From positions 1 through 43,923 of the forward strand of contig CAZMSI010000001.1 in NCBI GenBank assembly GCA_964568895.1: DNA of 43,923 nucleotides, read 5' to 3'. This stretch comes from an uncultured Sideroxydans sp. (GTDB lineage: Bacteria > Pseudomonadota > Gammaproteobacteria > Burkholderiales > Gallionellaceae). Numbering within the stretch: the first letter of the stretch is position 1; each line of letters starts with the position of its first letter. The position numbers were made by a program, and so were the translations under genes. The notes beneath the pieces are model-generated. The model searched no databases. It saw nothing but the letters and a program-made list of their open reading frames with translations, and was not told where the DNA came from. This document shows, one piece after another, positions 8,979 through 32,763 of this stretch.

Positions 8979-9430
8979 TCCCTTCCTGTCGTAGTGTTCG
9001 CATTCAATGTAACCTTGCGCCCGTCAGGCAGTATTTCGAATCCGATCGTCATGTCCGCCTGCGGCAGCAATTCCTGTGCTTTCTCCGGCCATTCTATCAG
9101 GCATATGTTACAGCCGTTGAATTCATCCCGGAAACCCGCCGCTTCCCATTCGCTGGCGTCGCGGAAGCGATACAGATCGAAGTGGCGCAAGTGTAACCCA
9201 GCTGCTTCGTATAGCTCAACCAGCGCATAGCTCGGACTCTTTACCCGGCCGCGGTGGCCGAGCGCATGCAGCAGCGCGCGCACCAGCGTGGTCTTGCCCG
9301 CGCCGAGATCGCCCTGCAGCCAGATCGTAAGGCCGGGCCGTAGTACCTGCGCCAGTTTTGCGGCAAAGGCTGCGGTGGCGGCCTCATCGGCCAGCTGCAG
9401 GGTTATTGGGCTATCATCTGCGTCATGCAA
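8954..9430 (-). CDS. tsaE: tRNA threonylcarbamoyladenosine (t6A) biosynthesis ATPase TsaE
   Basis: LQGDLGAGKTTLVRALL P-loop and SPSYALVELY...HFDLYR. Only the 3' ~480 nt of the 353-aa ORF is TsaE-like. The start is assigned to in-frame TTG 9430, since there is no ATG or GTG upstream of the P-loop region. Confidence 0.8.
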   Translation of the reverse strand: MHDADDSPITLQLADEAATAAFAAKLAQVLRPGLTIWLQGDLGAGKTTLVRALLHALGHRGRVKSPSYALVELYEAAGLHLRHFDLYRFRDASEWEAAGFRDEFNGCNICLIEWPEKAQELLPQADMTIGFEILPDGRKVTLNANTTTGRECLGKLPN

Positions 9431-10507
9431 AACACGGTACCTCAAGTCATCGATTACACCACGCTTGCCGCGAACATCAAGGAATGGGGCAGGGCGCTGG
9501 GCTTCCAGGCGGTGGGCATCAGCGATACCGAACTCGGCAGCGCCGAAGCGCGCCTGATGCAATGGCTGGCGCACGGCTATCACGGTGCGATGGATTATAT
9601 GGCAAAACACGGTGCCAGACGTGCGCGCCCGGCCGAGTTGTTGCCCGGCACGCTGCGCGTGGTCTCGCTGCGCATGGACTATTACCCGCCGGCAGCGAAA
9701 GATGCCTGGCAAGTGCTGGATGATGGCAAGCGTGCCTTTATCTCGCGCTACGCGCTGGGGCGCGACTACCACAAGGTGCTGCGCAACCGCCTGGAGAAAC
9801 TGGCGCGGCAGATACGTGCAGCAGTTTCGGATGCAGAATGCCGCGTGTTTGCCGACAGTGCGCCGGTGCTGGAAGTGGAACTGGCGCAGCGCGCACATCT
9901 CGGCTGGCGCGGCAAGCACACGCTGCTGCTGTCGCGTGAGCGCGGCTCGTGGTTTTTCCTCGGCGAGATCTACATCAACCTGCCGCTGCCGCTGGATGAA
10001 CCGGCGCAAGACCATTGCGGAAACTGCACGCGCTGCATCGAAATCTGTCCCACGCAGGCCATCGTCGCACCGTACCAGCTCGATGCGCGGCGCTGCATCT
10101 CCTATCTCACCATTGAATTGAAAGACAGCATTCCCGTCGAACTGCGGCCGCTGATCGGCAACCGCATCTATGGCTGCGACGATTGCCAGCTGGTGTGTCC
10201 GTGGAACCGCTTTGCACAGGTCTCCGTCGAGCCGGATTTCACGGTGCGCAACGGGTTGGATGACATCAAGTTAACGGAGCTGTTCAGGTGGGAAGAAACG
10301 ACCTTTGCGGAGCGCTTCGCCGGCAGCGCCATCCATCGCATCGGGCACGAACAGTGGCTGCGCAACATCGCGGTGGCGCTGGGCAACGCGCCACACAGTA
10401 ACGAGGTGGTTGCGGTTTTGCAACATCGCGCGCAACACCCGTCCGTTCTGGTGCGCGAGCACGTCGCGTGGGCGCTGCAGCGGCAGGCACAGGACAAGGA
10501 TTCTTGA
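9425..10507 (+). CDS. queG: epoxyqueuosine reductase QueG
   Basis: Collinear with E. coli QueG. Contains YHGAMDYMAKHG, two 4Fe-4S motifs (CGNCTRCIEICP, CDDCQLVCPWN) and a HEAT-like C-terminus. Confidence 0.92.
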   Translation: MQNTVPQVIDYTTLAANIKEWGRALGFQAVGISDTELGSAEARLMQWLAHGYHGAMDYMAKHGARRARPAELLPGTLRVVSLRMDYYPPAAKDAWQVLDDGKRAFISRYALGRDYHKVLRNRLEKLARQIRAAVSDAECRVFADSAPVLEVELAQRAHLGWRGKHTLLLSRERGSWFFLGEIYINLPLPLDEPAQDHCGNCTRCIEICPTQAIVAPYQLDARRCISYLTIELKDSIPVELRPLIGNRIYGCDDCQLVCPWNRFAQVSVEPDFTVRNGLDDIKLTELFRWEETTFAERFAGSAIHRIGHEQWLRNIAVALGNAPHSNEVVAVLQHRAQHPSVLVREHVAWALQRQAQDKDS

Positions 10508-10546: not shown

Positions 10547-10622
10547 GGGCCGTTAGCTCAGTTGGTAGAGCAGTGGACTCTTAATCCATTGGTCGAGTGT
10601 TCGAGTCACTCACGGCCCACCA
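10547..10622 (+). tRNA. tRNA-Lys (anticodon CUU), CCA encoded
   Basis: Cloverleaf read by hand: acceptor GGGCCGT/ACGGCCC, D-loop AGCTCAGTTGGTAGAGC, anticodon stem GTGGA/TCCAT with loop CT-CTT-AA, and T-arm GAGTG-TTCGAGT-CACTC. Confidence 0.93.
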
Positions 10623-11360: not shown

Positions 11361-11804
11361 TTAGCCGTGTACTACAGAAATTGACTTGAAGGCAGGTGGA
11401 GTCTTGGCCCCGGTCACGTCGGCCAGCGTATATTTGTCCAACTCTGCGAGAAAATTGTTTTTTGCCCCGAACAGCACCCCTTTCAGATTGCAGGCCTTGG
11501 TGATTGCGCAGTTGTCCGTCTCTTTATTGAAGCATTCAAGCAGGTCCAGATCGGGTTCGGTTTTCCTGACCACCTCGCCGATGCCGATTTCGGCGGCAGG
11601 CCGTGCCAGCCTGATTCCCCCGTGCTTGCCTCTGCTGGTCAGGATATATCCGTTAAGTCCAAGCTCGTGCACCACTTTTACCAGGTGATTCCTGGATATT
11701 TTGTAGAAATCGGCCAGTTCGGAAATCGTCACGGTCTTGTCCTTGCTGTATGCAAGATACAGCAGGACGCGAAGCGAATAATCTGTATACAGGGTAAGGC
11801 GCAT
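11361..11804 (-). CDS. nsrR: Rrf2-family transcriptional regulator, NsrR-like (NO-sensing Fe-S repressor)
   Basis: MRLTLYTDYSLRVLLYLA wHTH N-terminus and three clustered Cys (C93, C100, C106) in LECFNKETDNCAITKACNL, giving Cx6Cx5C spacing. Divergent from a globin gene with NsrR-type palindromes between them. The start is Met 45 of the listed ORF. Confidence 0.82.
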   Translation of the reverse strand: MRLTLYTDYSLRVLLYLAYSKDKTVTISELADFYKISRNHLVKVVHELGLNGYILTSRGKHGGIRLARPAAEIGIGEVVRKTEPDLDLLECFNKETDNCAITKACNLKGVLFGAKNNFLAELDKYTLADVTGAKTPPAFKSISVVHG

Positions 11805-11851
11805 CTGAATAAATAAGCTGTTCGTTGTTGACAATATCAGCTGCCCGCAAT

Positions 11852-11874
11852 AAGATGTATTTGAAATGTATCTT
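11852..11874. promoter_or_regulatory. NsrR-type 11-1-11 inverted repeat (box 1, proximal to nsrR)
   Basis: AAGATGTATTT-G-AAATGTATCTT, compared with the E. coli NsrR consensus AAGATGCATTT-N-AAATGCATCTT. Lies 48 nt upstream of the nsrR start. Confidence 0.7.
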
Positions 11875-11907: not shown

Positions 11908-11930
11908 AATATACATTTGAAATGCCATAT
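11908..11930. promoter_or_regulatory. NsrR-type inverted repeat (box 2, proximal to the truncated haemoglobin gene)
   Basis: AATATACATTT-G-AAATGCCATAT has a good left half and a weaker right half. Lies 35 nt upstream of the globin ATG, which has an AAGGAGG RBS. Confidence 0.55.
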
Positions 11931-11964
11931 ATACAATTATCCATGATTATTAAAGGAGGCAACA

Positions 11965-12327
11965 ATGAGTCTTTTCGAGGAGATCGGTGGCGAAGCGGCA
12001 GTAAATGCCGCAGTGGACATTTTTTATCGCAAGGTGCTGCAGGACGACCGTATCAAGCAGTTTTTCGACGGCGTCGACATGGATAAACAGGCTGCCAAGC
12101 AGAAGGCTTTCCTGACCATGGCCTTCGGCGGCCCGAACAACTATACCGGCGAGGACATGAGGAAGGGGCACGCCCATCTTGTGGCCAGGGGCCTGAACGA
12201 TTCGCACTTCGATGCCGTGGTGGAAGATCTCGCTGCGACGCTCAAGGAACTGAATGTCGCGGACAATCTGATCGCTCAGGTTGCAACCATCGCTGAAACC
12301 ACCCGTAACGACGTTCTGGGCAGGTAA
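11965..12327 (+). CDS. glbN: group I (N-type) truncated haemoglobin
   Basis: 120 aa. LFEEIGGEAAVNAAVDIFYRKVLQDDRIKQFF contains the Gly-Gly motif and B10 Tyr, and KGHAHL supplies the proximal His. Collinear with cyanobacterial GlbN and M. tuberculosis HbN. Confidence 0.88.
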   Translation: MSLFEEIGGEAAVNAAVDIFYRKVLQDDRIKQFFDGVDMDKQAAKQKAFLTMAFGGPNNYTGEDMRKGHAHLVARGLNDSHFDAVVEDLAATLKELNVADNLIAQVATIAETTRNDVLGR

Positions 12328-12342
12328 TTTCAGTAATTCTTT

Positions 12343-12381
12343 ATGGCGGGCCGCCTGGTGGCGGCCCGCCATATCTTTTTT
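12343..12381. terminator. rho-independent (bidirectional) terminator between glbN and the convergent HPP gene
   Basis: ATGGCGGGCCGCC-tggt-GGCGGCCCGCCAT, a 13-bp perfect stem, followed by atCTTTTTT. Confidence 0.85.
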
Positions 12382-12408
12382 CCCTGCGCTAACGCAGCGA
12401 GCAACGGC

Positions 12409-12957
12409 TCAAAACCATATTTCCGGGTAGCGGCGCGATTTCGGTATGTTGTTAACCAGCAGCGCGACGACCAGCAGGATGATCGGCCCGACCGTGGCCG
12501 GAAACAGCACATACCAGAATCCCAGGTTATGAATTTTGCCGGAGCCGATTACCGCGATGAGTGCGGTAGCGCCTCCGGGTGGATGCAGCGTGCGCGTGCC
12601 ATGCATGACGGCAATTGCAGTGGCGACGGCCATTGATTCGGCGAGCCACAAGTGCTGGCTCATGAGTTTCCAGCAGAGCACGCCGATTGCCGCCGACAGG
12701 ATATGCCCGCCAAGCAGGTTGCGGGGTTGCGCCAGCGGACTGCGGGGTGCGCCATACAACAGTACGGCGGTAGCGCCAAAGGAACCGATCATCAGCGCAA
12801 TGTCGTGCCCTTCGAAAAACAGGCTGCTGCCCCATGCGACGCCCGCAATTCCCAGGAATGCACCGATCCACGACCACAGGATTTCTGCGTTGCTCACCCG
12901 CGGCGGGCCGCCGCGGGTGGAGCCTTTCATTTTGGAAAAGTACTGGCGCAACCGCAT
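12409..12957 (-). CDS. HPP-family integral membrane protein (family contains nitrite transporters)
   Basis: LIGSFGATAVLLYGAPRSPLAQPRN, GGHILSA and the family signature HPPGGATALI. Start at Met 18 of the listed ORF, with GAGAGG upstream. Lies 7 nt after the CBS gene stop. Confidence 0.82.
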   Translation of the reverse strand: MRLRQYFSKMKGSTRGGPPRVSNAEILWSWIGAFLGIAGVAWGSSLFFEGHDIALMIGSFGATAVLLYGAPRSPLAQPRNLLGGHILSAAIGVLCWKLMSQHLWLAESMAVATAIAVMHGTRTLHPPGGATALIAVIGSGKIHNLGFWYVLFPATVGPIILLVVALLVNNIPKSRRYPEIWF

Positions 12958-12964
12958 AGGCCTC

Positions 12965-13576
12965 TCAAATAAAGGGACGCAAGAAGTCTTTGCGCAGCAG
13001 CAGGCCAAGCAGTCTGCCGTCGGCGCCTGTCACAGGCATGCTGCGGCCTTTGTGGCCGCCGAAAGCTTTCATGACCTCCATGAATTCCGCATCGGGGCCG
13101 ACCGTAACTGCCGGCTGCGTCATGGCTGTGCTTACCGGCATGCCATGGCAATGGTGGGTAAACTCAAACGAATCCTCGGACAACTTCAATGACAATTCCA
13201 GAAAGCTGCCGACCTTGAGACACCTGAGGAAATCGGTTTCCGTCAGCATGCCGATAACGATGCCGCCTGCGTCCACGACCGGAAGCCCCTTGTAGCCAGA
13301 ATTGGCAAGCGTTCTTGCGGCCAGATCGAGCGGCATGTCCGGAGTGAGCGGTTGTTCGATTTTTCGCATGAGGCGGCTGGCCGTCATTCCGCTGAACAGG
13401 CTTTCGACCGCATGACGGCGGGCAAGCTGATAAATGGCCCGAAAGTCCTCGGTCGTGATATCCAGATAACCTGGAATGTGCCGCATCGCATCCAGAATAT
13501 CTTCGTCGCTCAGGTTCAGCTCGGCCAGATCGTTATCTGGCTGGCCTTCCTTGTCGTTGCGAGATTGCTGAGTCAT
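12965..13576 (-). CDS. CBS-pair domain protein
   Basis: Two CBS repeats (MTASRLMRKIEQPLTPDMPLDLAARTLANSGYKGLPVVDAGGIVIGMLTETDFL and VSTAMTQPAVTVGPDAEFMEVMKAFGGHKGRSMPVTGADGRLLGLLLRKDFL). First gene of the CBS-HPP pair. Confidence 0.8.
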   Translation of the reverse strand: MTQQSRNDKEGQPDNDLAELNLSDEDILDAMRHIPGYLDITTEDFRAIYQLARRHAVESLFSGMTASRLMRKIEQPLTPDMPLDLAARTLANSGYKGLPVVDAGGIVIGMLTETDFLRCLKVGSFLELSLKLSEDSFEFTHHCHGMPVSTAMTQPAVTVGPDAEFMEVMKAFGGHKGRSMPVTGADGRLLGLLLRKDFLRPFI

Positions 13577-13585
13577 GATAGTATT

Positions 13586-13608
13586 AAGGTATATTTTAAG
13601 TATATCTT
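13586..13608. promoter_or_regulatory. NsrR-type inverted repeat (box 3) in the CBS-HPP / reductase divergent region
   Basis: AAGGTATATTT-T-AAGTATATCTT; the two half-sites agree at 9 of 11 positions, with the same spacing as boxes 1 and 2. Confidence 0.6.
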
Positions 13609-13694
13609 CTAAGGATATTGTACATTATCATTGGAATCAATACCCGACAAAAATAATAAGGACGGGTTGTTTTTTTGGAGAGAGGTAAGCGCCG

Positions 13695-14663
13695 GTGACC
13701 AAGATCATCTATCAAGGCCAGTCTTTTGACTGCGGGGAAAACGAGTCCGTGCTTGAAGCATTGACGGCGGGCGGGGTGGCGGTGCCTTCCTCCTGCAAGG
13801 CAGGTATCTGCCAGACCTGCCTGATGCGGGTAATCAAGGGGGAGGTCCCGGAAGAATCCCGCAAAGGCCTGAAGCCGACGCTTGCGGCACAGGGATATTT
13901 CCTGGCCTGCTCCTGTCACCCCGGCGCAGACATCGAGGTAGCGTTGCCGGAGCACGGGGCCGGCAGGTTGTCGGCCAGGGTGCTTGGCGTCGAACCGCTG
14001 AATGCCGACATTGCCAGCGTCAAACTCGCGCCGGCACGTCCTCTGGAATACCAGGCTGGCCAGTTCATCAATTTCTTCAAGGATGAAATGACCGCACGCA
14101 GTTTTTCCCTGGCCAGCGTGCCGGGGCTCGACGATGACCTCGAACTCCATGTGCGCAGGATTCCCGGCGGGGAAGTCAGCCCATGGATACACGGCCTGTC
14201 TGCAGGCGACGTTGTCGACATCTCGGAGGCAGCCGGCGATTGTTTCTATTTGCCCGGCAACCCGGATCAGGGTTTACTGCTGATCGGGACCGGATCGGGG
14301 CTGGCGCCGCTTTACGGCATCGTCAAGGATGCCCTGCTTCAGGGGCATACGGGCCCGATCAGGTTGTACCACGGCAGTCTGAATGTGGCTGGTCTTTATC
14401 TGGTCGACGAGTTGAGGGAAATTGCAGCAGCCCACCCGAATTTTTCCTATGCGCCATGCGTATCCGAGGAGGAGGCACCCGATGGGGTCAGGGACGGGAT
14501 CGTGCTTGATGTTGCGCTGGACGATGTTCCCGATCTATCGGGCTGGCGCGTCTACCTGTGCGGGAATCCGGCAATGGTGAATGCCGCGAAAACAAAAACC
14601 TTCCTCGCGGGTGCTTCGATGCAGAATATTTACGCCGATCCTTTCCTGCCCGCAAATACCTGA
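13695..14663 (+). CDS. 2Fe-2S ferredoxin / FAD / NAD(P)H oxidoreductase (FNR-like reductase with N-terminal plant-type ferredoxin domain)
   Basis: Cluster ligands SSCKAGICQTC...LACSC, FAD motif RSFSLAS, NAD(P)H motif LLIGTGSGLAP. GTG start with GGAGAGAGG upstream. Confidence 0.85.
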   Translation: MTKIIYQGQSFDCGENESVLEALTAGGVAVPSSCKAGICQTCLMRVIKGEVPEESRKGLKPTLAAQGYFLACSCHPGADIEVALPEHGAGRLSARVLGVEPLNADIASVKLAPARPLEYQAGQFINFFKDEMTARSFSLASVPGLDDDLELHVRRIPGGEVSPWIHGLSAGDVVDISEAAGDCFYLPGNPDQGLLLIGTGSGLAPLYGIVKDALLQGHTGPIRLYHGSLNVAGLYLVDELREIAAAHPNFSYAPCVSEEEAPDGVRDGIVLDVALDDVPDLSGWRVYLCGNPAMVNAAKTKTFLAGASMQNIYADPFLPANT

Positions 14664-28275: not shown

Positions 28276-30144
28276 GTGGCTTTACTGCAAATCTCCGAAC
28301 CTGGCCTGAGTACCGCCCCGCATGAACACCGGCTGGCAGTTGGCATCGACCTCGGTACTACCAACTCGCTGGTGGCAACCGTGCGTAACGGCATCAGTGT
28401 GGTGCTGAATGACGAACATGGCCGCACGCTGCTGCCGTCTGTGGTGCGTTATCTGCCGGACGGCGAGGTACACGTCGGTGTGAGTGCACAGCAGGAACAG
28501 AGCAAGGATCCTTCCAATACCATCGTTTCGGTCAAGCGCTTCATGGGGCGCGGCCTGGCCGACATCGACGACGCCACCAGTTTCCCTTACCGCTTTGTGG
28601 ATGCGCCGGGTATGGTGCAGTTGCGCACCGTGGCCGGGGTAAAGAGTCCGGTGGAGGTATCAGCGGAAGTGCTCAAGGCCTTGCGCAGCCGGGCCGAAGA
28701 TGCACTGGGTGGCGAACTGGTCGGCGCGGTGATCACGGTGCCCGCCTATTTCGACGATGCGCAGCGCCAGGCCACCAAGGATGCGGCAAAGCTGGCCGGA
28801 CTCAACGTGCTGCGCCTGCTCAACGAACCGACCGCCGCCGCCATTGCCTATGGCCTGGATAATGCCGCCGAAGGCGTGTATGCGGTGTACGACCTGGGGG
28901 GCGGTACGTTCGACATTTCCATCCTGCGGCTGTCGCGCGGCGTGTTCGAGGTGCTTGCCACCAATGGTGATTCTGCGCTGGGCGGCGACGACTTCGATCA
29001 GCGTCTGTATTGCTGGCTGCTGGAGAAGAATAACCTTTCCGCGCTGGATGCGCGGGATACCCGCTTGCTGCTGACCCGCTCACGAGCGGCCAAGGAAGAG
29101 CTCACCGAATATACACAGACGCGCATTACCGTTGTGCTTGGTAACGGCGAGGTAATCGACAATACGCTGGAACAGCAGGAATACCACGACATGACGCAGA
29201 ACCTGGTTGCGCGCACGCTGCAGCCGATGCGCCGCGCCCTGCGCGATGCCGGGCTGAAGTCGGAAGACGTCAAGGGCGTAGTGATGGTGGGCGGTGCCAC
29301 GCGCATGCCGCAGGTGCAGCACGCAGTGGCGGAATTCTTCAAGCAGGCGCCGCTGACCAACCTCGATCCGGACAAGGTGGTGGCATTGGGTGCGGCGATG
29401 CAGGCCAACGTACTGGCTGGCAACCGCGGCGAAGACGACTGGCTGCTGCTCGACGTGATTCCGCTCAGCCTCGGCATCGAAACCATGGGTGGCCTTTCCG
29501 AGAAGATCGTGCCGCGCAACAGCACCATACCGACTGCGCGGGCGCAGGAATTTACCACTTTCAAGGACGGTCAGACCGCAATGAGCATCCATGTGGTACA
29601 GGGCGAGCGTGAGCTGATTTCAGATTGCCGCTCGCTGGCCAAGTTCGAGCTGCGCGGCATTCCGCCGATGGTGGCAGGAGCGGCGCGCATCCGCGTCACC
29701 TTCCAGGTTGATGCGGACGGCCTGCTGAACGTCTCGGCACGCGAGATGAGCAGCGGCGTCGAAGCACACGTCACGGTCAAGCCTTCTTACGGCCTGAGCG
29801 ATGAGGAAGTCACGCGCATGCTGCAGGATTCCTATAGCCATGCGCAGGACGACATGTCGGCGCGCAGCCTGGCCGAAGCCAGGGTGGAAGGACAGCGTCT
29901 GCTGGAAGGTACGCACGCTGCTTTGCAGGAAGACGGCACCGTGCTGCTGCAGCCGCAGGAAGTACAGGCCATTGAGCAGCTCATGGAAAAACTGCAGCAG
30001 ATGCTGGCGGGAGACGATCTGCCAGCCATTCGCCGCGCTACCGATGCGCTGAACCAGGGTACGACAGAATTTGCTTCGCGCCGCATGGACTGCAGCGTGC
30101 GCAAGGCGCTCACCGGTCACCGCCTGGACGAACTGGAGACATGA
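28276..30144 (+). CDS. hscA: Fe-S chaperone HscA (Hsp70 family)
   Basis: [10 protein letters not shown]...[26 protein letters not shown] and [11 protein letters not shown] start. Confidence 0.97.
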
Positions 30145-30932
30145 TGCCGGGCCATGATGCCGCGGTAATGGATGCCGGGTTCATCGACGGGCTGCGTGCG
30201 CGCCTCGACCACCATCCGCTCTACGAATCGCTGCACACTGTCGAGGACCTGCGCGTGTTCATGATGCACCATGTGCATTCGGTGTGGGACTTCATGTCAC
30301 TGATCAAGTATCTGCAGCACGCGGTGGCGCCGGCGCGCTGGCCGTGGCAGCCTGGCGCCGATCCCACAGTGCAGCGCTTCATCAACGAACTGGTGCTGGA
30401 AGAGGAAACCGACGAGGCGGGTCCTGCGCATCCCGGCGAATTTGTCAGCCATTTCCAGTTGTACCTGGGCGCGATGCGTGAAATCGGTGCTGATGCCGAT
30501 ACGCCGCAGCGCTTCGTTGAGCTTGCTGTGCGTGAGGGCATAACCGCCGCACTGGCTTCCGGCCTGGTGCCGGAACCGGCTTTGCGCTTTACCCGGACCA
30601 CGTTCGATTTCATCGGCAGCGACCGGCCGCATGTGGTGGCAGCGGTGCTGGCGCTGGGACGCGAGCACGTGATCCCGGCCATGTTCCGCGCCTTGCTGGC
30701 GCGTATGGGTGTCGGCGAACAGCAGGCACCGACTTTCCATTATTATCTGAAGCGTCACATCCATCTGGACGAGGATTTTCATGCGCCGCTGTCGCTGCGC
30801 CTGCTGCATGGATTGTGCGCTGGCGATCCAGCGCGCATTGCCGAAGCGCATGCTGCCGCCGAGCAGGCAGTCGCCGCGCGCGTTGCTTTCTGGGATGGCA
30901 TACTTGCCGTCCTGCCCAGTCAACAGAACTAA
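30141..30932 (+). CDS. DUF3050-like protein (haem-oxygenase-like helical fold) embedded in the isc operon
   Basis: [35 protein letters not shown]...WPWQP...[14 protein letters not shown]...[16 protein letters not shown] matches my recollection of the DUF3050 signature. ATG overlaps the hscA TGA, and fdx follows 12 nt later. Confidence 0.7.
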
Positions 30933-30944
30933 AGTGAAAAAATC

Positions 30945-31277
30945 ATGCCCCAACTGATCGTGCTGCCTCATGAAGAACTCTGCCCACAGGGTGCGGTGCT
31001 GCAGGTAGAATCCGGCACCAGCATTTGTGATGCACTACTGAACAATGGCATCGAGATCGAGCATGCCTGCGAAAAATCCTGCGCCTGCACCACCTGTCAC
31101 GTAATCCTGCGCGAAGGCTTCGACAGCCTGGCCGAGGCAGAAGAGATTGAGGAAGACCTGCTGGACAAGGCCTGGGGGCTGGAACCGACCTCGCGCCTGA
31201 GTTGCCAGGCACTGGTCGATGGCAGCGACCTGGTGATAGAAATTCCCAAGTACACCATCAACATGGTGAAGGAGTGA
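30945..31277 (+). CDS. fdx: ISC-type [2Fe-2S] ferredoxin
   Basis: IEHACEKSCACTTCHVI...RLSCQ with adrenodoxin-type cysteine spacing. 110 aa. Confidence 0.95.
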   Translation: MPQLIVLPHEELCPQGAVLQVESGTSICDALLNNGIEIEHACEKSCACTTCHVILREGFDSLAEAEEIEEDLLDKAWGLEPTSRLSCQALVDGSDLVIEIPKYTINMVKE

Positions 31278-32037: not shown

Positions 32038-32060
32038 ATGATTTATTTTTAATACATCAT
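32038..32060. promoter_or_regulatory. NsrR-type inverted repeat (box 4) upstream of the second HPP-family gene
   Basis: ATGATTTATTT-T-TAATACATCAT. Each half matches AAGATGTATTT at 9 of 11 positions. Lies 17 nt upstream of ATG 32077. Confidence 0.5.
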
Positions 32061-32076: not shown

Positions 32077-32763
32077 ATGAATTTCCAGGACTTTCTTGCA
32101 TCGTTCAAACCGGGTTTTGATCCCGTTCCCATCAACGAAAAAATACGCAGCGGCGTTGCGGCATTTATGGGCATGCTGCTGCTTGGGTTTGCACTACATC
32201 TATTGCCGGGAACCGCGGGCTATCATCTGGCCGTTCTCGCTTCGATGGCTGCAGCGGCTGTATTGTTGTATGCGGTGCCGCACAGCCCGATGACCCAGCC
32301 ATGGCCGTTGGTATGCGGCAATCTGGTCTCCGGCCTGATCGGCTGGATCTGCAGCCTATGGATCCCCGACCCGGTTCTGGCCGCGGCCTGCGCCGTCGGA
32401 GCTGCGGTGCTGGCCATGCACCTGCTGAACTGCCTGCATCCGCCGGGCGGTGCGACGGCAATGATCATGGTGCTGGGTGCAGAGCAATTCCATCAGCACG
32501 GCTGGGAATGGCTAGCCGCCACAGTAATCGCCAATACGTTGCTGTCGCTGCTGCTGGCACTGGTTATTAACAACCTGTTGCCGGGCAGGCGCTATCCTTC
32601 GCATCGCACAACTGTGCAGCCGATGTCGCAAGGCGGAAAGTTGGATGCAATGGACATCAAGTGGGCGCTATCGCAAATGGATGGAGTGATCGACGTCAGC
32701 GAGGAAGATTTGCTGGAAATTTACCGATTGGCCTCCGGGCGCGTCAGGATGCGCACCCCATGA
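32077..32763 (+). CDS. HPP-family integral membrane protein (paralog) with a short cytoplasmic C-terminal tail
   Basis: LASMAAAAVLLYAVPHSPMTQPWP and CLHPPGGATAMIMV signatures. The C-terminal 40 aa resemble the N-terminus of the CBS protein at 12965-13576. Confidence 0.82.
   Translation: MNFQDFLASFKPGFDPVPINEKIRSGVAAFMGMLLLGFALHLLPGTAGYHLAVLASMAAAAVLLYAVPHSPMTQPWPLVCGNLVSGLIGWICSLWIPDPVLAAACAVGAAVLAMHLLNCLHPPGGATAMIMVLGAEQFHQHGWEWLAATVIANTLLSLLLALVINNLLPGRRYPSHRTTVQPMSQGGKLDAMDIKWALSQMDGVIDVSEEDLLEIYRLASGRVRMRTP

Follow-up and report, generated by a model that had tools for sequence, protein, structure and literature searches.

A truncated haemoglobin gene and its candidate reductase partner separated by a CBS-HPP cassette in an uncultured Sideroxydans sp.

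Genes, proteins and operators at the locus

The locus examined here lies in a contig of an uncultured Sideroxydans sp. (GenBank assembly GCA_964568895.1, contig CAZMSI010000001.1), whose positions 1 to 43,923 of the forward strand, 43,923 nucleotides (nt) in all, are hereafter referred to as the window. It carries glbN, which encodes a group-I truncated haemoglobin (trHbN), and a gene for an iron-sulfur flavoprotein reductase. An earlier note, made from the letters of the window, had proposed that this reductase re-reduces the ferric globin, so that the two proteins would act together as a nitric oxide (NO) dioxygenase, a split counterpart of flavohaemoglobin (Hmp). The features of the region are as follows (aa, amino acids).

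11361–11804, minus strand: nsrR, Rrf2-family NO-sensing repressor, 147 aa (Pfam Rrf2, E 6.6e-35)
11828–11856, plus strand: predicted sigma-70-like globin promoter, TTGACA-17-TAAGAT (10/12 in a consensus scan; a prediction only)
11852–11874, unstranded: NsrR box 1 (AAGATGTATTTGAAATGTATCTT), 30.1 bits, between the divergent nsrR and globin genes, 90 nt before the globin ATG
11908–11930, unstranded: second, weaker NsrR-like box, 13.6 bits, 34 nt upstream of the globin ATG
11965–12327, plus strand: glbN, group-I truncated haemoglobin, 120 aa (Pfam Bac_globin PF01152, E 1.3e-18)
12342–12373, plus strand: intrinsic terminator just past the globin stop, 14-bp GC-rich stem with 100% complementary arms and a T-run
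12409–12957, minus strand: HPP1, HPP-family integral membrane protein, 182 aa (Pfam TM_HPP, E 8e-60), second gene of the cassette
12965–13576, minus strand: CBS-pair protein, 203 aa (Pfam CBS in two stretches, E 2.4e-19), first gene of the cassette
13586–13608, unstranded: NsrR box 2 (AAGGTATATTTTAAGTATATCTT), 20.9 bits, between the divergent CBS-HPP cassette and reductase
13695–14663, plus strand: reductase with plant-type [2Fe-2S], FAD-binding and NAD(P)H-binding domains (Pfam), 322 aa, GTG start

For comparison, one representative genome per GTDB species was scanned with an alignment of reductase homologues as the query. At least 518 relatives with the Fer2-FNR (ferredoxin-NADP reductase) architecture are present among the GTDB representatives; the best 80 loci, whose reductase orthologues show 51–70% identity, were analyzed, and their neighbor genes were found by tblastn with the proteins of the window. 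Individual loci are denoted by L numbers.

The assignment of the first gene to trHbN was supported from several sides. The best solved relatives of its product by sequence all belong to group I, from Synechocystis GlbN (cyanoglobin; E 3e-37) down to M. tuberculosis HbN (E 1e-16), with Tetrahymena trHbN, Synechococcus GlbN and Chlamydomonas THB1 among them, whereas the group II (HbO) match reached only E 1e-4. The AlphaFold2 model (predicted local distance difference test score, pLDDT, 86.7) has the 2-on-2 fold, and Foldseek gave template-modelling (TM) scores of 0.81–0.89 against group-I proteins versus 0.65–0.74 against groups II and III. Residues were numbered by alignment to Synechocystis GlbN. 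The key positions are the glycine hinges G8G9 and G55G56, PheB9-TyrB10 (residues 20–21), GlnE7 (42), LysE10 (45), GlnE11 (46) and HisF8 (69), all of which are invariant across 79 globin orthologues; 49 of the 120 residues are at least 97% conserved in this set. Divergence is much lower in the globin than in the reductase (mean p-distance 0.24 versus 0.44), and the best 120 globin protein matches listed were all at least 84% identical. By its sequence, the protein is a member of the group I truncated haemoglobins, and its haem binding and NO/O2 turnover are predicted.

The pocket formed by TyrB10, GlnE7 and GlnE11 supports NO dioxygenation in the trHbNs of Tetrahymena and M. tuberculosis (PDB entry names and mutants; review PMC3820574). 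M. tuberculosis HbN belongs to the same globin group and has the same distal-pocket residues as the globin of the window, but it carries a pre-A extension and is encoded without an adjacent reductase, whereas the protein described here begins at helix A, has a lysine at E10 and has a dedicated neighbor. The native electron donor of HbN was regarded as unresolved by Gardner (2012). It was also found that position E10 is occupied by an invariant lysine in all 79 orthologues, while Synechocystis GlbN has the haem-ligating His46 there. In Chlamydomonas THB1, Lys E10 ligates the haem iron, and by analogy the present subfamily may be hexacoordinate at rest. It lacks the covalent haem link through His117 as well as the mycobacterial pre-A extension.

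The 322-aa reductase is encoded at 13695–14663 as had been described, and its three recognized elements are all present: the plant-type [2Fe-2S] domain (Fer2, E 7.7e-15; C34-x4-C39-x2-C42...C72), the RSFSLAS motif (R135-S-F-S138; FAD_binding_6) and the GTGSGLAP motif (G200-T-G-S-G-L-A-P; NAD_binding_1). Invariant in 19 homologues are C34, C39, C42, C72, the key RxFS and GxGxxP positions and the C-terminal Phe317, and the reductase of the window retains every residue that is invariant in its subfamily. In the sequence comparison, the closest solved structure was GcoB (5OGX; E 1.3e-55, 192 bits, residues 7–320), followed by CarAd (84 bits) and by T4moF, BenC and the FNR part of Hmp (55–78 bits). 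The AlphaFold2 model (pLDDT 83.5, predicted TM score 0.80) provided the same ranking by fold: GcoB 5OGX was the top Foldseek match (E 2.6e-29), and the solved members matched were 5OGX, 7C3A, 4WQM and 1KRH (E 3e-29 to 1e-21).

In GcoB, a three-domain [2Fe-2S]-FAD-NADH reductase, Phe330 stacks on the flavin and NADH is preferred more than 50-fold; the protein binds the P450 GcoA in a complex and is its direct reductant (PMC6021390). The architecture of the present reductase is therefore that of a proven single-protein donor to a separate haem enzyme. The order of the [2Fe-2S], FAD and NADH domains is common to both proteins, which are 35% identical when aligned by structure, and Phe330 of GcoB corresponds to Phe317 here. 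The difference is in the partner: GcoB serves a P450 O-demethylase in Actinobacteria, whereas here the partner would be a truncated globin under a putatively NO-responsive control. The reductases of the BenC/CarAd/T4moF/MmoC class have the same three-domain architecture and cofactor motifs, but their similarity is much weaker (74–85 bits), and they feed Rieske or di-iron oxygenases encoded alongside, whereas the present subfamily is without such neighbors.

With Hmp, the pair shares a haem globin, an FNR-type FAD/NAD(P)H module and NsrR control, and by analogy the presumed overall reaction is the same (NO, O2 and an electron yielding nitrate). Residues 91–319 of the reductase can be aligned with the FNR module of E. 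coli Hmp (1GVH; 55 bits; Foldseek E 7e-17). However, Hmp is a single chain with a 3-on-3 globin and direct flavin-to-haem transfer, whereas the pair consists of two polypeptides with a 2-on-2 globin and an extra [2Fe-2S] domain, which is likely to act as a one-electron gate. Membership in the Hmp family was rejected on these grounds (separate genes, 2-on-2 globin, extra Fer2 domain) and on the NCBIfam score (65.6 against a cut-off of 432). Likewise, the reductase is not an Hmp-type reductase domain that was cut loose; instead, it is a three-domain iron-sulfur flavoprotein of the BenC/GcoB type, and the [2Fe-2S] cluster would therefore stand between the flavin and the haem. The named oxygenase-reductase equivalogs (MmoC, BenC, AntC, PaaE and Hcr) and PRK05713 were also tried and rejected, since all the scores were far below the NCBIfam cut-offs (PRK05713, 196 against 338; MmoC, 136 against 500; BenC, 126 against 430). 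As to electrostatic complementarity, the globin (net charge −6) and the ferredoxin domain (−3) each carry a mild excess of acidic charge, which is uninformative.

The nsrR gene adjoins the globin gene in the divergent orientation. The NsrR model was the best of the Rrf2 models of NCBIfam (142.7 bits; RirA 113, IscR 45); the score does not reach the equivalog cut-off of 182, which belongs to a model built on enterobacterial proteins. The residues Asp8, Cys91, Cys99 and Cys105, which we take to be the Fe-S cluster ligands from the S. coelicolor NsrR structure, are present.

The operators were searched for with a 23-nt palindromic weight matrix, which was iterated, with box 1 of the window as the seed, over the sequences upstream of the globin in the 80 loci. 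The window's own sites were left out of the matrix; because of the seed, box 1 is not fully independent of it, whereas box 2 and a third box described in the last section are independent. The matrix converged on AAGATGyATTTnnAATrCATCTT, which contains the published NsrR consensus gATGyAT-N5-ATrCATc. As controls, the whole window was shuffled 200 times and each intergenic region 2,000 times. The maxima in the whole-window shuffles averaged 6.8 ± 2.8 bits, the highest being 16.1, and none of the 2,000 shuffles per intergenic region reached the scores observed for box 1 or box 2. Thus, the claim that an NsrR-like box precedes each of the two genes holds at the level of sequence, with 30.1 bits for the globin and 20.9 bits for the reductase, above all the shuffles.

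Box 1 departs from the published consensus at one position and is almost the same as GATGTATTTcAAATACATC, the site of Legionella glbN; the −10 hexamer of the predicted globin promoter overlaps it. The weaker box at 11908–11930 was also found as a repeat of box 1, and it is uncertain, as its score lies below the highest shuffle; the operators upstream of the globin may be in a tandem arrangement. This half-conserved box overlaps a second promoter-like match (11910–11937). Box 2 has four mismatches to the published consensus but resembles the ATATAT-type half-sites that are common in the lineage; it precedes the reductase GTG by 86 nt, and its distance from the CBS ATG is 9 nt. A box scoring 17 bits or more is present in the 260 nt upstream of the globin in 69 of the 80 loci, the median distance being 99 nt (interquartile range, IQR, 88–109). 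Within the 1.42 Mb of the loci as a whole, 91 sites of at least 17 bits occur, 86 of which are upstream of the globin. In one locus (L059), a box of 20.1 bits (9892–9914) is found 86 nt upstream of the reductase, within a globin-reductase spacer of 202 nt, and a strong box before the globin is absent.

Conserved linkage and its local rearrangement

The earlier note had suggested that the conservation of the gene neighborhood be checked. This analysis clarified that a trHbN gene (59–88% identical) is located directly upstream of the reductase gene, on the same strand, in 80 of the 80 best loci. Reductase orthologues found mostly in sugar or aromatic-oxygenase clusters would have spoken against the pairing; none was so placed among the 80 loci. 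The gap between the two genes is 5–33 nt in about 70 loci and 216 nt at most. An nsrR gene is within reach of the pair in 61 loci, in 58 of which it lies divergently upstream of the globin. When all the open reading frames (ORFs) within 5 kb were clustered de novo, only the reductase, the globin and nsrR recurred, the remainder being variable; oxygenase, P450 or sugar genes were not found as conserved neighbors of the reductase in this clustering. Since the flanks vary while these three genes recur, they are a unit that was kept together through many rearrangements. The globin and reductase pairwise distances are correlated in a mirror-tree comparison (r = 0.63), a value that is compatible with co-inheritance and too weak to argue for physical interaction.

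The hosts are Gallionella, Sideroxydans and other Nitrosomonadales, Chromatiales, Steroidobacteraceae and Burkholderiales, as well as the methanotrophs Methylococcus capsulatus, Methylobacter, Methylomonas, Methylovulum and Methylocaldum; one zetaproteobacterial metagenome-assembled genome (MAG) and two oddly binned MAGs were also found. Some of the loci have peculiarities of their own. In Methylobacter (L048, L053, L054 and L063; also L058), a second, inverted globin-reductase pair occurs a few kb away, with a globin 73–76% and a reductase 45–48% identical to the proteins of the window. In L023 (9622–9990), the globin upstream of the reductase seems to be interrupted, with a tblastn match in two parts and a frame of 78 aa, which is either a frameshift or an assembly error. 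A Methylococcaceae MAG (L057, 4025–6883) carries, in addition to the canonical pair, a PNPOx_N-trHbN fusion directly followed by a reductase composed of FHA, FAD_binding_6, NAD_binding_1 and a C-terminal Fer2; this second pairing is an architecturally independent globin/iron-sulfur flavoprotein pair.

In the window, such adjacency is not found: a stretch of 1,367 nt parts the globin from the reductase, in agreement with the separation of about 1.4 kb noted earlier, and two inverted genes and a terminator lie between them. Owing to the terminator at 12342–12373, the globin is monocistronic here. The split arrangement is true of the window but not general, being a lineage-specific rearrangement of an otherwise bicistronic operon. 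The order globin, HPP, CBS and reductase is the same in the 99%-identical contigs (including L086), in which HPP1 is called as a 182-aa gene, and in a contig of about 92% identity (L087), in which box 2 is also kept (17.9 bits, 9 nt from CBS). The next-nearest relatives (71–72% identity) have the canonical arrangement, in which the Rrf2 gene diverges from the globin-reductase operon. The split is a local rearrangement seen only in the window's own lineage (L084–L087).

The intervening CBS-HPP cassette is itself a widespread two-gene unit: HPP follows CBS in 64 of 80 metagenomic loci (57–72% and 66–85% identity), and outside the window's lineage the cassette in these loci is never accompanied by the globin or the reductase. 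An NsrR box upstream of the cassette was found in 5 of 71 cases, two of the five being from the window's own lineage. The possibility that box 2 arrived as cargo of the cassette was thus rejected. Its origin by segmental duplication was also rejected, as the two intergenic regions share the box alone and their alignment score is within the shuffle range. Flanking direct or inverted repeats, which would be transposon-like scars, were not found around the 1.4-kb insert. Between two lineages with the split arrangement, the ratio of nonsynonymous to synonymous substitution rates (dN/dS) of the reductase is 0.17; the reductase is therefore still under purifying selection after the split. We propose that co-regulation was kept by the second NsrR box before the reductase. 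In this sense, the split operon would be a natural experiment in which selection kept an NsrR operator on each half.

A probable NsrR-controlled NO detoxification module and its rivals

What is observed here comprises the genes with their cofactor motifs and folds, the operator sites and, across about 80 other species, an invariant adjacency of the two genes. Our reading, to which we assign a probability of roughly 0.7, is that the globin and the reductase form an NsrR-controlled two-component NO detoxification module; NsrR binding, electron transfer from the reductase to the globin and NO dioxygenation are what we infer. In the absence of NO, the iron-sulfur repressor NsrR would occupy the palindromes before the globin (and its own gene) and before the reductase. 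NO would damage its cluster, and the globin and reductase units would be derepressed. The reductase would then accept a hydride from NAD(P)H onto FAD and, through the [2Fe-2S] domain at its N terminus, deliver electrons one at a time to the ferric trHbN haem. The ferrous haem would bind O2 and turn NO into nitrate, and the haem would return to the ferric state for the next cycle.

The partnership suggested in the earlier note is supported by the adjacency in all 80 loci and the shared operator, but it is not new: the prediction dates from 2005 and was taken up again in 2012. Rodionov et al. (2005, PLoS Comput Biol) found the glbN-lpg2536 operon to be the sole NsrR target of Legionella pneumophila, with the site GATGTATTTcAAATACATC and a divergent nsrR (their Table S4), and proposed an Hmp-like role in NO oxidation for the two proteins. 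[quoted passage not shown] The Legionella case resembles the present one in the cyanoglobin-type trHbN, the "hypothetical ferredoxin reductase", the divergent nsrR and the palindrome (GATGTATTTcAAATACATC versus GATGTATTTGAAATGTATC here), lpg2536 being likened to our reductase by its published description alone. It differs in the arrangement: in Legionella and in the 80 loci the genes form one operon, whereas in the window two units, each with a box, are parted by the CBS-HPP cassette and the terminator. Two genome papers, one on Legionella (2014) and one on Gallionellaceae (2013), name the trHbN and leave the reductase unmentioned. Our searches for experimental literature on the pair provided only the 2005 prediction and the 2012 review; a 2025 paper on an Acinetobacter haemoglobin was set aside, since it concerns an unrelated 3-on-3 globin. 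The concept is thus already published, and what is added here is how widely and invariably the genes are linked, the relationship to GcoB and a rearranged member. The module is a rearranged member of the predicted kind, and its value lies in direct testability rather than in surprise.

Several points weigh against our reading. About 11 of the 80 loci are without a recognizable box, so that NsrR control is not universal. Adjacency shows functional coupling and not which reaction is catalyzed, and biochemical or genetic data on any member of the pair were not found in the literature searches. Many of the carriers are microaerophiles or hypoxic methanotrophs, in which O2-dependent dioxygenation may be limited, and Emerson et al. 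(2013) argued that the trHbNs of Sideroxydans serve respiration rather than NO detoxification. On the reductase side, a sigma-70 consensus promoter was not found upstream of the gene in the consensus scan, and box 2, only 9 nt from the CBS start, may primarily control CBS-HPP.

The habitat of the carriers, which are mostly microaerophilic iron oxidizers and hypoxia-adapted methanotrophs, and the respiratory role proposed for the Sideroxydans trHbNs would suit a reading in which the reductase does recharge the globin but for other chemistry: O2-independent NO reduction, reduction of nitrite to NO, turnover of hydroxylamine or peroxynitrite, or micro-oxic O2 buffering or delivery. The invariant Lys E10, taken with the ligation known from THB1, would suggest a hexacoordinate haem tuned for electron transfer, and the regulon repeatedly includes proteins of the HPP family, which is reported to consist of nitrite transporters. 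However, NsrR control points to NO or nitrosative stress. Group-I truncated haemoglobins, moreover, bind O2 tightly enough to function at low O2, and the distal pocket is that of the NO-dioxygenating trHbNs mentioned above (PMC3820574). We therefore regard other chemistry as unlikely, although it deserves serious attention. It is far less probable, indeed very improbable, that the two genes became functionally independent after the split, with box 2 controlling CBS-HPP alone and the reductase drifting or recruited elsewhere. Such an uncoupling would agree with the position of box 2 directly downstream of a plausible minus-strand −35/−10 pair for CBS-HPP (read from the sequence) and with the failure of the scan to find a consensus promoter for the reductase. 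Nevertheless, the reductase is intact, with all the subfamily-invariant residues kept and the low dN/dS given above; the distance of 86 nt from box 2 to the reductase matches the family norm; L059 independently has a box at 86 nt upstream of its reductase; and the scarcity of NsrR boxes at the cassettes elsewhere indicates that box 2 is not cassette cargo. Finally, the nearness of the globin might be coincidental and the reductase might serve another enzyme, such as an aromatic or alkane oxygenase, a P450 or a sugar reductase. The domain order and the best named models (MmoC, BenC, AntC and the generic PRK05713) are indeed of the oxygenase-reductase type, and the closest solved relative serves a P450. 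Against this stand the equivalog scores far under their cut-offs, the occurrence of every one of the 80 orthologues beside trHbN and of none beside an oxygenase or P450, and the reductase's own NsrR box, and we consider a foreign partner extremely improbable.

The preferred reading, an NsrR-controlled NO detoxification module, would make the reductase a dedicated, genetically linked candidate electron donor for trHbN. Some of the methanotrophs that carry the pair are cultured and tractable, namely Methylococcus capsulatus, Methylobacter luteus, M. marinus, M. tundripaludum and Methylomonas lenta. If this reading is true, the pair would be a two-component NO dioxygenase mechanistically distinct from Hmp, with an Fe-S cluster as the electron gate; it would explain the NO tolerance of iron oxidizers and methanotrophs that shape the N2O and NO fluxes in hypoxic sediments and soils, and it would serve as a template for finding the partners of other orphan globins.

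HPP2 and other features of the window

A second HPP gene with an NsrR-like box lies further downstream in the window.

32038–32060, unstranded: third NsrR-like box, 22.5 bits, 16 nt upstream of HPP2
32077–32763, plus strand: HPP2, second HPP-family membrane protein, 228 aa (Pfam TM_HPP, E 3e-43)

HPP2 is 36% identical to HPP1 and is located just after dsbB. Six orthologous Gallionellaceae loci were compared, and dsbB and HPP2 are mostly still neighbors in them. Of these loci, L166 (21.1 bits) and L167 (16.2 bits) have a box in the position that it takes before HPP2 in the window, and L168 and L171 have a weaker one; the box of L169 (18.6 bits) is at 68 nt, and in L170 a box is absent. Genes for HPP proteins or HPP-CBS fusions were also found within 5 kb of the globin-reductase pair in about 10 of the 80 genomes. 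Judged from the operator sequences, HPP2 is a probable further member of the NsrR regulon, and HPP-family proteins may be regular members of it.

A broader reading is that the pair represents a widespread, distinct class of NO dioxygenase, the main NO defense of iron-oxidizing Gallionellaceae and many methanotrophs, in which the [2Fe-2S] cluster, instead of a flavin, gates the delivery of single electrons to the 2-on-2 haem and, in this lineage, the NsrR-regulated CBS-HPP1 and HPP2 export the nitrate or nitrite produced. We put forward this joint scheme of sensing, oxidation and export because both HPP genes of the window have NsrR-like boxes, the HPP2 box is positionally conserved, and HPP or HPP-CBS genes occur near the pair in some of the genomes; taken as a whole, it is a tentative proposal that we consider somewhat doubtful.

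Two other features were noted in the window. A DUF3050/haem-oxygenase-like gene (30141–30932; PF11251, E 5e-84) is found inside the isc-hsc-fdx cluster, between hscA (28276–30144) and fdx (30945–31277), and the same arrangement is seen in L166 and L167. The sole Rfam match in the window is a tRNA at 10547–10619 (RF00005, 73.4 bits), which is flanked by queG (9425–10507) and a small lipoprotein-like ORF.

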